Below are positions 5,861 through 60,712 of a DNA stretch of 64,000 nucleotides, piece after piece; within the stretch, counting starts at the first letter, position 1; every line of letters begins with the position of its first letter. The DNA is taken from positions 85,808,001 through 85,872,000 of the forward strand of contig OZ024745.1 of assembly GCA_964016885.1 (NCBI GenBank), written 5' to 3'. A program made the position numbers and the translations under genes. The notes under the pieces were generated by a model, which searched no databases, had not been told where the DNA came from, and was given only the letters and a program-made list of their open reading frames with translations. The stretch comes from Eledone cirrhosa. Taxonomy: Eukaryota.

Positions 5861-5994
5861 CATATGTACATATACACACACACATACACACATATATATA
5901 TATACATACACACACACAAAAAAACACAACCACAGAAATACACACACACATACAAATACGTATATATACATATATATATATATATATATACACT

Positions 5995-6972
5995 GGATAT
6001 GCAAATTGGGCTACTCAGCCGTTAATATGCATAAGGTAAGTATATACGTTCAATAATCTGGCAGGATGGTATACGTTGCTGACGATAGCTAATAAGCTTG
6101 AAACTAGTACAGCGTTCCTTTGTCAGTATTGAATATTTCGCTGCACCCGGCCGATCAACCCACTCGATATGCAAATTGGGCTACTCAGCCGTTAATATGC
6201 ATAAGGTAAGTATATACGTTCAACTATCTGGCAGGAAGGTATACGTTGCTGACGATAGCTAATAAGCTTGAAACTAGTACAGTGTTCCTTTGTCAGTGTT
6301 GAACAAACGAGCAACGATGGTTGCTGGACACTACGGCTTAATGCGGGATGTTTGTTTACAAACACACCGAGCATTATAATAAATGTTCAGTGAATCCATA
6401 CGTACATATATATATGTGTGCATGTATGTATATATATATACATACTACTGTACGTCTGTATACATATATGAATGTACGTGTACATATTTATATTTAAGTA
6501 ACAGCCATACTAAGAGTGGGAAATTAAATTAAGTTTCATTTTTTCCGTTTATCGTTTTCGGTGCACCCAGCCGATTAACCCACTCGATATGCAAATTGGG
6601 CTACTCAGTCGTTAATATGCATAAGGTAAGTATATACGTTCAACAATCTGGCAGGATGGTATACGTTGCTGACGATAGCTAATAAGCTTGAAACTAGTAC
6701 AACGTTCCTTTGTCAGTGTTGAACAAACGAGCAACGATGGTTGCTAGACACTACGGCTTTATACGGGATGTTTGTTTACAAACACACCGAGCATTGTAAT
6801 AAATGTTCGGTGAATCCATACGTACATGTATATATGTGTGCATGTATGTATCAATATATGCATACCACTGTACGTCTGTATACATATATGTATGTACGTG
6901 TACATACTTATATTTAAGTAACAGCCGTACTGAGAGTGGGAAATGAAATTTCGTTTATTTTTTCCGTTTATT
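5995..6972 (+). repeat. Family A tandem array (~420-bp unit), one hammerhead per unit, retrozyme-like
   Basis: HHRs at 6073-6115, 6243-6285 and 6663-6705: ACGTTG-CTGACGA-tAGCT-aata-AGCTt-GAAAC-ta-GTA-CARYGT. The first unit is internally deleted (170-bp spacing). Confidence 0.9.
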
Positions 6973-6982
6973 ATATATATAT

Positions 6983-7172
6983 TAGGGCGGTGGATTGGCA
7001 GTATCGGTGGAGGGTCGGACGCCATGCTTTCCAGCATAGTTACGTCCCTTTACGATCTGAGTTCAAATCACGCCGAGGTTCACTTTGCCTTACATCCTTA
7101 CGGGGTCGATAAAATAAAGTACCAGTAATGCACAGGGTAATTGCTGGCCTTGTGCCTAAAGTAGAAGCAATT
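6983..7172 (+). mobile_element. tRNA-derived SINE (octopus-type)
   Basis: A-box-like TGGCAGTATCGG, B-box GTTCAAATC, body GTCGATAAAATAAAGTACCAG. Five near-full copies in the window, all in (TA)n. Confidence 0.8.
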
Positions 7173-7192
7173 ATATATATATTATATATATT

Positions 7193-7382
7193 AAGGGCGG
7201 TGAATTGGCAGTATCGGTAGAGGGTTGGACGCCATGCTTTCTAGCATAGTTACGTCCCTTTACAGTCTGAGTTCAAATGCCGCCGAGGTTAACTTTGCCT
7301 TTCATCCTTACGGGGTCGATAAAATAAAGTACCAGTAATGTACTGGGTAATTGCTGGCCTTGTGCCTAAAGTAGAAGCAATT
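7193..7382 (+). mobile_element. tRNA-derived SINE, second copy
   Basis: Homologous to 6983-7172. Confidence 0.8.
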
Positions 7383-7409
7383 ATATATATATTATATATA
7401 TATATTATA

Positions 7410-7451
<42 letters not shown>

Positions 7452-8454
7452 AGATAAATCTACCAAAATGTACGGTAGTGTCCAATTCGTATGAAAAACT
7501 CAATGTAATCCAAATATCATGAAAATAGAAGATGTATTCTAAATCTTTTCGATGAAAAACACAGGAAAACAGTCAAGATGAATTAATAAAAATAATGAAT
7601 AAAAACAAAGAAACAGTTCCTTATATTAAAAAATTCATCATTTTACGGTCTTTTCTAGGATATATATGTGTGTTGGTATGTATATCATATAGATCTATGT
7701 AAAATTTTTACAAACTATCAGAGGGAATATACATACCTACACATATATATGCTGTCTTTAGAAATAGTGATATTTGTTTATTGAAAAAAAACCAACAAAG
7801 ATTTAATATAATAGGTCTGTTTGGGAACAGGTTTTGAATTGACCAATAGAAAGGTAGTAAGTGGTCAAGATGGTAGAATAGTAGTAATGGAACTTTAATT
7901 TAGGGGTAGAGGAAAGCAGACTTCAGTTTTGAATGGAAAGAGTATTTTGGATGAAAAGATTACTTTGGGGATGAAAATAGGTCAAGTCGGAAAAAGGTAC
8001 ACGAAAATTTGATGTTATAAAAGAATAATGCGAATGTAAAAATCTAAGGAGATTAAAATTTTACGGTAAATATGTTAGTGAAAAATATCAATCTTATTTA
8101 AAACATAAGGAATTTACATCTATGAAAAGAAATTAAATTAATTTAATTGATAAGTATATTTATATTGATAAATTTATATTAATTCATATAGATATGATAA
8201 ATAAGAGTTAGATGTAATTGAAGAATGTTGTTAAAAACGAAGGGAAAATAAAAAAAATAATAATAATAATTGGGGGGGATAAATGTATTAGTGAGAAATA
8301 ACAAATTTATATAGATTATAAGGAATATAGATTCATAACCTGAAACTAAAATAGTTTATATGTATACTTATGGGTATAAATTTTAGGAAAAGATAGCTGT
8401 AAAATAGAAATTTAAAAAAAAAAAAAATTATTATAATAATTTCTAAAGTTTATA

Positions 8455-11823: not shown

Positions 11824-12225
11824 ACTTACGTATATACTTACCTTATTCATATTAACGGCTGAGTAGCCCAATTTGCATATCGAGTGGGTTATGCATAAGG
11901 TAAGTATATACGTTCAACAATCTGGCAGGAAGGTATACGTTGCTGACGATAGCTAATAAGCTTGAAACTAGTACAGCGTTCCTTTGTCAGTGTTGAACGA
12001 TGGTTGCTGGACACTACGGCTTAATACGGGATGTTTGTTTACAAACACACCGAGCATTATAATAAATGTTCGGTGAATCCATACGTACATATATATATAT
12101 GAGTGCATGTATGTATATATATACACATACTACTGTACGTCATACATATATGTATGTACGTGAACATACTTATATTTAAGTAACAGCCGTACTAAGAGTG
12201 GGAAATGAAATTTCGTTTCATTTTT
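11824..12225 (+). repeat. Family A unit (HHR 11937-11979) preceded by an inverted family A piece (11824-11890)
   Basis: Same HHR sequence as 6073-6115. The reverse-complement octamer segment abuts the plus-strand copy. Confidence 0.85.
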
Positions 12226-12363
12226 TGTGTATATATATATATATATGTTTAAGTGTTAAACAAGGTTCAGTGAATACATCTAAGAATGAGTTTTACACAC
12301 ATACATGTGTGTGTATGTATTTGTATGTATGTGTGTATGTATATGTATGTGTATATATGTGTG

Positions 12364-48670: not shown

Positions 48671-48715
48671 TATATATATATATATTATATATATTATATA
48701 TATATATATATATAT

Positions 48716-49812
48716 AAAAACAAATAACGAAACGAAATTAAATTTCGTTTCGTTTGTAACTCACTTTTGTATGACTGACGCTTAAACAATTAAGTTAAAA
48801 ATGTACATCCACATATGTATACTGAAATACTAGTATGCATATGAATACACACACGTATACATATGTAGATGTACCAAGTCTTTCACTGGTCACTTTACTG
48901 TGAGTGGCCAGCTATTCTGTATGTAAACACACAGACAAACCGGTTTTTAGAGTCATATTGATTTTTGAGGAAACACCTTTCCTCTATTCTCCAGAAAGCC
49001 AGACAAGGAATATTGAACTAGTTCCGTTGTTGTTACAACTCATCAGCAATATTTACCTATCTACCGGCCTTTCTGGAGAATCGTAAAAGCACATATCGTT
49101 ATATGCTTTTTCTATGAAAATTAGTAGTGGGCAGACTAATTTGCATAGAGTGTGAGTACGTACCGGTTCAACGGAGACGATAAAAACAAATAAGGAAACG
49201 AAATTAAATTTCGTTTCGTTTGTAACTCACTTTTGTATGACTGACGCTTAAACAATTAAGTTAAAAATGTACATATGTATACTGAAATACTAGTATGCAT
49301 ATGAAATACTAGTTTACATACAGAATAGCTGGCCACTCACAGTAAAGTGACCAGTGAAAGACTTGGTACATCTACATATGTATACGTGTGTGTATTCATA
49401 TGCATACTAGTATTTCAGTATACATATGTGGATGTACATTTTTAACTTAATTGTTTAAGCGTCAGTCATACAAAAGTGAGTTACAAACGAAACGAAATTT
49501 AATTTCGTTTCGTTATTTGTTTTTATCGTCTCCGTTGAACCGGTACGTACTCACACTCTATGCAAATTAGTCTGCCCACTACTAATTTTCATAGAAAAAG
49601 CATATAACGATATGTGCTTTTACGATTCTCCAGAAAGGCCGGAAGATAGGTAAATATTGCTGATGAGTTGTAACAACAACGAAACTAGTTCAATATTCCT
49701 TGTCTGGCTTTCTGGAGAATAGAGGAAAGGTGTTTCCTCAAAAACCAGTATGACTCTATATGCATACTAGTATTTCAGTATACATATGTGGATGTACATA
49801 TTTAACTTAATT
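48716..49812. repeat. Second family B insertion (minus ~48716-49305, plus ~49310-49812)
   Basis: HHRs at 49009-49053 (minus, GGAAC mutation) and 49653-49697. Distinct SNP haplotype from 26189-28472. Confidence 0.92.
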
Positions 49813-59869: not shown

Positions 59870-59962
59870 ATTCAGGCTGTTCAGTTTGTTTACAAACGAA
59901 CAAAGCGGGCGTTATAATAAGCGTCCGCTAAACTGATACGTGCATATATGTATGTGTACCTG

Positions 59963-60002
<40 letters not shown>

Positions 60003-60712
60003 ACGAAAGGACTATGACTATATATAAAGAACTATCTGGTTGTGGAACCAACCAACCAACCAGAAATTTATAAATAACTAAATTTATAAATGTATTATAA
60101 GAAATTGAAGTAAAATCAACTGGTGCGTGTGTTTCTTATTGGCAACATGACCCTCCCAAAGTATAACTATATATATATATATATATATATATGCATGCTA
60201 CTGTACGTCTGTATACATATATGTATGTACGTATACATACATACTTACATTTAAGTAAGTGCCGTACTAAGAGTGAGAAATGAAATTTCGTTTTCATTTT
60301 ATTACAACTTATCGTTTTCGGTACACCTGGCCGTCTGAACTCACTCGATATGCAAATTAGGCTACTCAGCCGTTAATTTTCATAAGGAAAGTATATACTT
60401 TCGAACGTTCAACCATCTGGCAGAAGGGTATACGGTGCTGATGATAGCTAACAAACTTGAAACTAGTACATCGTTCCTGTGTCAGTGTTGAACAAAAAGG
60501 TGACGTGGTTGCCTTAACACCGTACGGCATAAATTTAGGCTGTTCAGTTTGTTTACAAACGAACAAAGCGGGCGTTATAATAAGCGTCCGCTAAAATGAT
60601 ACGTGCATATATGTATGTGTACCTGTATGTATATATTTTATATATATATATATGCATGCTACTGTACGTCTGTATACATATATGTATGTACGTATACATG
60701 CATACTTACATA
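59870..60712 (+). repeat. Divergent family A array (HHR 60432-60474), interrupted by a family O tail at 60000-60168
   Basis: 59874-59970 repeats at 60537-60635, and 60190-60250 repeats at 60652-60710. Confidence 0.8.

Follow-up and report, generated by a model that had tools for sequence, protein, structure and literature searches.

Layout of the A and B repeat units

The window analysed here is a stretch of 64,000 nucleotides from Eledone cirrhosa (assembly GCA_964016885.1, contig OZ024745.1, positions 85,808,001 to 85,872,000 of the forward strand), which belongs to a genome of 3.0 Gb. It carries two families of short repeats, A (unit length 420 bp) and B (467 bp), each with hammerhead ribozyme motifs. 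Eight A-type cores (at 6079, 6249, 6669, 11943, 21190, 21623, 22050 and 60438) and five B-type cores (at 26518 on the minus strand, 27280, 27747, 28214 and 49660) were found. The order of parts within each unit is a box resembling a host promoter motif, a TATA element, a type I hammerhead, hairpins, a TA-rich stem and a T-rich tail. Ribozymes follow each other in tandem at 6249 and 6669 in A and at 27280, 27747 and 28214 in B, with unit lengths of 416-502 bp. The GC content is 0.35 (over 6001-8000), and the units are non-coding, without a reading frame of 170 or more amino acids over 5991-6971 or in the B arrays. A type I hammerhead in every unit, low GC, absence of coding capacity and absence of long terminal repeats (LTRs) make A and B non-LTR retrozymes by the sequence-level definition. 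The original prediction, made from the letters alone, had correctly recognized hammerhead repeat families, but left this known class unnamed.

The A locus at 5995-6972 (plus strand) consists of one 170-bp deleted unit, two 420-bp units and (TA)n. The short unit (5991-6133) is 5'-truncated, retains box (5998-6009), TATA, hammerhead (6073-6115, predicted cleavage after 6109) and extended stem I, and passes into the next unit across a skip of 252 bp. This deletion form was seen once; a template jump may have made a minimal retrozyme. The two full units (6136-6971) are 93.7% identical. The first has its box at 6168-6179, where it doubles as the 5' arm of a predicted hairpin, a TATA element at 6211-6216, 42 nt from the start of the octamer (46-48 in the host U6 class), a hammerhead at 6243-6285 (predicted cleavage after 6279) and, at unit positions of about 330-385, a tail with a T6 run (6497-6552) that lies between two fixed 3' ends described below. 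In the second, the box is at 6588-6599, the hammerhead at 6663-6705 (predicted cleavage after 6699), and the terminal tail (6917-6971) stops at a fixed 3' end and is followed by (TA)n.

Family A had been reported at five or more separate loci, which agrees with our count. Besides 5991-6971 these are an insertion at 11828-12234 (plus strand, with an inverted arm at 11828-11891 on the minus strand), an array of about 3.2 units at 20947-22284 (plus strand) of a subfamily whose spacer between TATA and ribozyme is 8 nt longer, a 5'-truncated copy without ribozyme at 41536-41725 (minus strand), which stops at the second fixed end, and a copy of subfamily A3 at 59884-60699 (plus strand), earlier referred to as the 60432 copy. 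The first B insertion is an inverted pair, with 1.5 units on the minus strand (26185-26894, stopping at the first fixed end) and 3.4 identical 467-bp units on the plus strand (26894-28473, stopping at the second), the latter having boxes at 27179, 27646 and 28113 ahead of the three tandem cores. The second is an inverted pair at 48714-49758 (48714-49305 on the minus strand, from 49312 on the plus strand).

Hammerhead fold and covariation of the stems

All stems quoted in the original prediction are present in the sequence. Stem II needed two corrections. The pair at its base is a U.U mismatch in A and G-C in B, and in the 60432 copy one stem II pair is broken (AGCT/AACT), this copy folding no better than its shuffles (z=-0.8). 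Real copies of A (z=-2.6) and B (z=-5.0) fold into a three-way junction that has a long extended stem I, and whole units folded well as circles, with z=-5.4 (A) and -11.1 (B) against 30 shuffles. No Rfam family matched at the gathering score; the ribozyme assignment rests on the sequence pattern and the pairing.

Covariation was evaluated, in place of R-scape, by re-pairing of alignment columns, by shuffling of real copies and by simulation along a tree built from the promoter region. Lineage H was excluded from the stem counts because its single majority sequence has no clear stem III. Over the remaining 13 subfamilies 134 of 143 cells in stems I and II were paired, and 17 further Watson-Crick types were counted. 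Of the nine unpaired cells, five fell at the base of stem II; 9 of the 11 pairs had at least two Watson-Crick types. Re-paired columns reached at most 85 paired cells and 10 further types (1836 permutations). Simulations with independent sites, a fully paired start and matched variability averaged 83 paired cells, with 110 as the maximum; none of 1000 reached the observed value. At the slowest simulated rate 2 of 1000 runs did reach 134 cells, none with the observed pair diversity. Among eight real copies 88.2% of 136 cells were paired, both sides had changed in 8 of 17 pairs, and the covariation score was matched by 0/500 shuffles; the number of further pair types was not above that of the shuffles (205/500). 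Both arms of the hairpins 3' of the ribozyme also differ, by eye, among A, A2, A3 and B. The stems thus covary between A and B, as had been proposed; for a retrozyme this is to be expected and comes as no surprise.

Homology, subfamilies and abundance

A and B proved to be homologous beyond the hammerhead. With the ribozyme and the TA-rich part excluded, the tail and promoter segments aligned with a score of 72 against a shuffle mean of 21 (z=15, 0/500), so their description as sister families stands. Taken separately, the hairpin segment after the ribozyme (z=2.7, 15/500 shuffles) and the promoter spacer without its 12-mer (10/500) gave weak signals. The pairwise identity of subfamilies A1 and B1 is 0.69, the only cell of the identity matrix that was used, as others have artefacts (trivial end overlaps scored 1.00 or 0.80).

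A pattern consisting of the box and, 62-92 nt further, CTGANGA had 33,339 matches genome-wide and one for the reversed control; the count takes in tandem units, while mutated ones escape it. A and B belong to this larger clade. Narrower patterns (5,775 and 429 matches) and 60 evenly spaced 10-kb stretches yielded the subfamilies A1, A1b, A2, A3, B1, B2, C1, C2, D, D2, E, F, G and H, clusters 9 and 13 having been dropped as chance matches. The proposed radiation of hammerhead repeats is borne out, with 33,339 box-plus-ribozyme matches and 13 or more subfamilies. Mean distances to the subfamily majority, estimated from small samples with overlapping loci, were about 1-2% (A3, B, A1), 6-11% (C) and 13-14% (D, E), so that amplification came in several waves. 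Arrays of B reach about 30 near-identical units (C1:5738348-5751969 and C1:376448698-376456734), one having multi-unit arms in both orientations.

Only 3 of 37 hammerhead-like motifs in a 600-kb sample (L115-L174) had the box upstream, thus the box marks this clade and not hammerheads generally. At 37 motifs per 600 kb the genome would hold hammerheads in the order of 10^5. The window has other hammerheads lacking the box (at 2155, 2356, 4069, 4423, 13235, 15694, 31820, 32604, 36915, 42163, 46174, 58430, 61159 and 61306). The genome has many such families without the box; several of them end in (TA)n and lie next to fragments of PLE-like (PLE, Penelope-like element) frames. A candidate for the family in another species, one contig with a second organism label (depth 11.4, 16 differences over 6450-6815), was too thin to be used, and assembled contigs aligning to 6100-7000 are of a kind that cannot show transcript starts, cuts or circles.

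A host U6-class box in the repeats

Among host small-RNA genes one promoter was compared per distinct upstream type, excluding as pseudogenes those U6 and U6atac hits that had no upstream sequence of this kind. The box TATGCAAATKAG (at most one mismatch) occurs at -77 to -79, ahead of a TATA at -30, in all five promoters of one group (three unrelated U6, U6atac and RNase MRP; L061, L062, L063, L226, L282) and in none of the ten others (five U1, three U2, RNase P and signal recognition particle (SRP); L083-L114, L225). All ten except SRP have TCAGT, which lies at -56 to -58 in U1 and U2. The host promoters thus form two clean classes, octamer box plus TATA (U6, U6atac, MRP) and TCAGT at about -57 plus TATA (U1, U2); SRP has neither motif, and the U1/U2-type motif of RNase P RNA suggests that it is transcribed by RNA polymerase (Pol) II.

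The motif ATGCAAAT of the repeats is the host U6-class box, followed by TATA at a fixed distance. The sequence TATGCAAAT is the same in A, B, C and G, all of which were found without selecting on TATGCAAAT. From octamer start to TATA there are 41-43 nt in lineages A-E and G although the spacer has diverged, and 47 nt in H; F has a weaker TATAC. The old lineage H (L254, L261, L271, L274) thereby keeps the exact host U6 spacing, and may be nearest to the capture event. Random DNA had 17 hits of the box in 1.2 million strand-bases, 8 of them ahead of a ribozyme-like core. A YCAS motif 25-27 nt before TATA, where U1 and U2 have TCAGT, is a weak resemblance. The SRP, RNase P, U1 and U2 promoters, examined for a host gene with the 42-43 nt spacing, all lack the box. 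The spacing of small nuclear RNA (snRNA) promoters can switch the polymerase. Newt satellite 2, another hammerhead repeat, reportedly has an octamer and a proximal sequence element (PSE). The tail of the repeats carries T5-T7 runs. Box and TATA would be, with slightly better than even odds, a working promoter for Pol II or a leaky Pol III.

Anatomy of the insertions

Insertions of both families stop at one of two fixed 3' sites, located at unit positions of about 385 and 329 in A and about 435 and 361-365 in B. The A and B sites align, and the two homologous ends are 56-74 bp apart. One or the other was used at 50 of 56 A ends picked by blast, where the query itself stops at the first fixed site, at 26 of 35 A ends from other loci, and at 31 of 35 B ends. 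TA repeats adjoined 72 of 91 (A) and 27 of 35 (B) 3' ends. The 5' ends were scattered without piling up at the cleavage site (1 of 91 and 1 of 37 were close to it), and neither fixed 3' end coincides with that site. Among the A loci 28 of 47 had an inverted arm, and among the B loci 15 of 20. In the 43 inverted pairs, 25 had one end of each type, and thus a one-sided tail of 56-74 bp; three and two had two like ends, and in 13 an end was unclassed. These insertion scars point to TA-targeting PLE enzymes as the likely movers of A and B. Some motifs that the original prediction had listed as shared do not belong to RNA stems. The T-run with TTTATCG forms the fixed insertion end, and ATGCAAAT agrees with the promoter box of the host U6 class.

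Both arms exceeded one unit in 11 of the 43 pairs, therefore tandem units were already present at insertion. Units differed by 0.3% within an array and by about 4% between arrays (74 comparisons within and 84 between for B, 13 and 4 for A3). An internally primed circle or an uncut multimer as template fits both the near-identical arrays and the ends away from the cleavage site; later homogenisation of the arrays is a possible alternative source of the likeness of units.

The units have no frame combining reverse transcriptase (RT) and GIY-YIG, by which an autonomous PLE is recognized, and Pfam named none of three frames in the window. At L215:1200-3140 (minus strand) a box and ribozyme of lineage C directly adjoin the 5' side of a 5'-truncated element; this element has RT (Pfam RVT_1) and a GIY-YIG-like end, and the arrangement may be a chimera formed by template switch or a nested insertion. 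At L230:1370-1500 a U6atac pseudogene has been joined to an inverted part of the promoter region of lineage G, and two more U6atac pseudogenes (L227, L228) start right after TA repeats. It looks as if the TA-targeting machinery of the repeats copied U6atac RNA, too. A dimer of a 210-bp repeat with A/B-box-like motifs lies 3' of the first A array (6969-7404), and the same repeat is inserted into the TATA of several U6 promoters (C19 array; L067, L068, L072).

Decay of inserted copies

The proposal of selection as opposed to neutral satellite drift holds for the lineages, whose stems covary, and fails for the genomic copies. Among 130 distinct copies, non-CpG singleton substitutions per site-copy were 9/1310 in the core and 235/29415 elsewhere (p=0.87); stems had 20/2257 (p=0.62) and the box 9/1560 (p=0.46). 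Many of these loci had been preselected for an intact box and core; the bias expected from this is towards a deficit, and none was seen. Because inserted copies decay regardless of the core, covariation reflects which copies found new families, not host selection. Judged from these substitutions, what acts is the usual filter on the source copies of mobile elements, with no host selection on inserted copies.

Drift of a neutral satellite whose stems are kept paired by template switching between inverted arms is a very remote alternative: inserted copies do decay neutrally and short palindromes are known to be able to self-correct, but about 30 nt separate the arms of stem I, which enclose a core that is intact in 13/13 subfamilies, 9 of 11 pairs have two or more Watson-Crick types, and dispersed insertions with fixed ends are unlike satellites.

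Proposed life cycle and alternatives

The explanation that we favour, with a probability of about 0.7, is that A and B are sister non-coding retrozymes, copied by PLE enzymes into (TA)n and transcribed from a captured U6-type box in each unit. Box and TATA would start transcription just ahead of the ribozyme, and the polymerase (Pol II or leaky Pol III) would run through the tail and the promoter of the next unit; this step as a whole seems a little more probable than not. Two successive ribozymes, probably acting as dimers, are predicted to cut at GUA (A) or GUU (B) and to release a unit-length RNA with the promoter inside, which would be circularised as in other retrozymes. As suggested by the insertion anatomy, a TA-targeting Penelope-like RT/endonuclease would prime at the tail end and copy round the circle or along a multimer into near-identical tandem units, a second priming 56-74 nt upstream giving the inverted arm. 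Inserted copies then decay irrespective of the core, as seen in the sample. Only intact arrays would seed new families, and this would produce the covariation.

Several observations speak against this explanation. The distance between box and TATA is 4-5 bp shorter than the 46-48 of the host. The body of the units is not significantly depleted of T4 (chance of none: A 0.56, B 0.30), and in B a transcript would have to cross T5, T4 and T4 runs inside the unit. In A1 the extended stem I starts 8 nt after TATA, upstream of the expected start. In lineages A-F the box is predicted to form the 5' arm of a hairpin (-5.6 to -12.3 kcal/mol), whereas host promoters barely fold (-0.9 to -3.4 kcal/mol), which makes an RNA role possible. 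The search that yielded lineages D, E, F and H had itself selected on the box, and the decay test rests on small counts (9 core events). The tail of 56-74 bp exceeds the 30-40 bp described for PLEs. The window and 282 loci, searched by tail homology and for flanking frames, yielded no autonomous element with this tail. Finally, Li et al. (2026, bioRxiv 10.64898/2026.07.22.740005) observed cleavage in vitro for only one of nine predicted Xenopus retrozymes.

The hairpin belongs to the strongest of the alternatives, which we nevertheless consider unlikely. It keeps retrozymes and PLE mobilisation, but has the ATGCAAAT region maintained as an RNA hairpin (for example an RT binding site), with transcription reading through from outside and the promoter match a relic or chance. 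Such a role is favoured by the prediction of the hairpin in A-F and its absence in host promoters, by a compensatory change between B and C (TTAG/CTAA versus TGAG/CTCA), by a box-TATA spacing unlike that of the host U6 class, and by the T runs inside units. On the other hand, only the 3' arm varies, the 5' arm being invariant and identical to the host box, and the real stems of these repeats change on both sides. Moreover, the distance to TATA is fixed, lineage H has exactly the host spacing, and the background of the box is only about 1 per 70 kb.

Less probable still is that A and B are solo pseudo-LTRs (pLTRs) shed by autonomous PLEs, passive by-products with covariation inherited from their parents and later amplified as satellites. 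The derivation of retrozymes from pLTRs, as put forward in bioRxiv 10.64898/2026.07.22.740005, and the (TA)n ends of other hammerhead families in the window are in line with such an origin. However, in the loci scanned no co-oriented PLE frame lies directly upstream of a box-ribozyme unit, and the pairs with both arms longer than one unit indicate tandem units at insertion. Neither the window nor the 282 loci contained sequence homologous to the pLTR of an autonomous PLE.

Returning to the retrozyme with a captured promoter, a more far-reaching version can be formulated, whose chances we put just short of even: a clade of more than 33,000 units would have captured an upstream promoter of the host U6 class, respaced it by half a helical turn and carried it inside a self-cleaved RNA circle, as a self-transcribing, PLE-mobilised counterpart of a short interspersed nuclear element (SINE) for which the tandem layout is required, as the promoter to be inherited normally lies beyond the transcript. 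If true, the captured box extends the single newt precedent to an invertebrate-type genome and explains the need for a tandem layout. The strong transcription of retrozymes becomes testable via the captured snRNA-gene box, and so does the mover of animal retrozymes: a TA-targeting PLE is indicated by the fixed ends, the one-sided tail and the inverted arms, which also specify where priming takes place. With 13 or more subfamilies, the repeats offer a natural covariation series for minimal hammerheads, and the promoter motif of the host U6 class has practical value for expressing guide RNAs in Eledone cirrhosa.

Comparison with known systems

Metazoan non-LTR retrozymes have been described as short, AT-rich, non-coding tandem units with type I hammerheads (Cervera and de la Pena 2020, PMC7229834), and A and B share all these features, including one hammerhead per unit (PMC7229834; bioRxiv 10.64898/2026.07.22.740005), as well as the presence of at least two families side by side. 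The stem III loop is palindromic as in axolotl HHR_Amex1, and the U.U at the base of stem II of family A is also found in HHR_Amex2. Different are the units of 420-500 bp, and the promoter box, fixed 3' ends and inverted arms, which the accessible text of these descriptions of metazoan retrozymes does not contain. Mobilisation by PLEs was deduced there from co-occurrence and pLTR phylogeny, here from insertion scars (PMC7229834; bioRxiv 10.64898/2026.07.22.740005). A covarying radiation is ordinary in this class; what is new is the direct PLE insertion scars and the host U6-class box. In the accessible literature, Repbase excluded, we found no published report of such repeats in a cephalopod or of a U6-class box in a retrozyme or PLE.

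PLE insertions typically have an inverted 5'-truncated copy, a tail of 30-40 bp at one end and (TA)n targets (Craig et al. 2021, bioRxiv 10.1101/2021.04.23.441226). A and B resemble the endonuclease-positive (EN+) PLEs of the Neptune/Naiad type in (TA)n target, 5' truncation and inverted 5'-truncated copy, and in the extension at one end and partial tandems (bioRxiv 10.1101/2021.04.23.441226). They differ in having no reading frame and a tail of 56-74 instead of 30-40 bp, and in their hammerheads, which Naiads lack.

For the promoter, the nearest parallel is newt satellite 2, a hammerhead tandem repeat like A and B, with an internal snRNA-type promoter that is reported as Pol II (Coats et al. 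1994, as cited in PMC2220036). The box of A and B, unlike that Pol II promoter, matches the host Pol III class of U6, U6atac and MRP, not U1 and U2. Captured Pol III promoters are also known from Sm-alpha and from TRIMp3 (Cassandra, Helenus, Ajax) (PMC2220036, PMC2770079, PMC10886601), which are non-autonomous like A and B and took over a small-RNA promoter, as A and B would have done, Sm-alpha having a hammerhead, too. Their promoters are gene-internal (tRNA, 5S), whereas the box of A and B is of the upstream type, which can be inherited only if transcription reads through the tandem, so that the tandem layout would be required.
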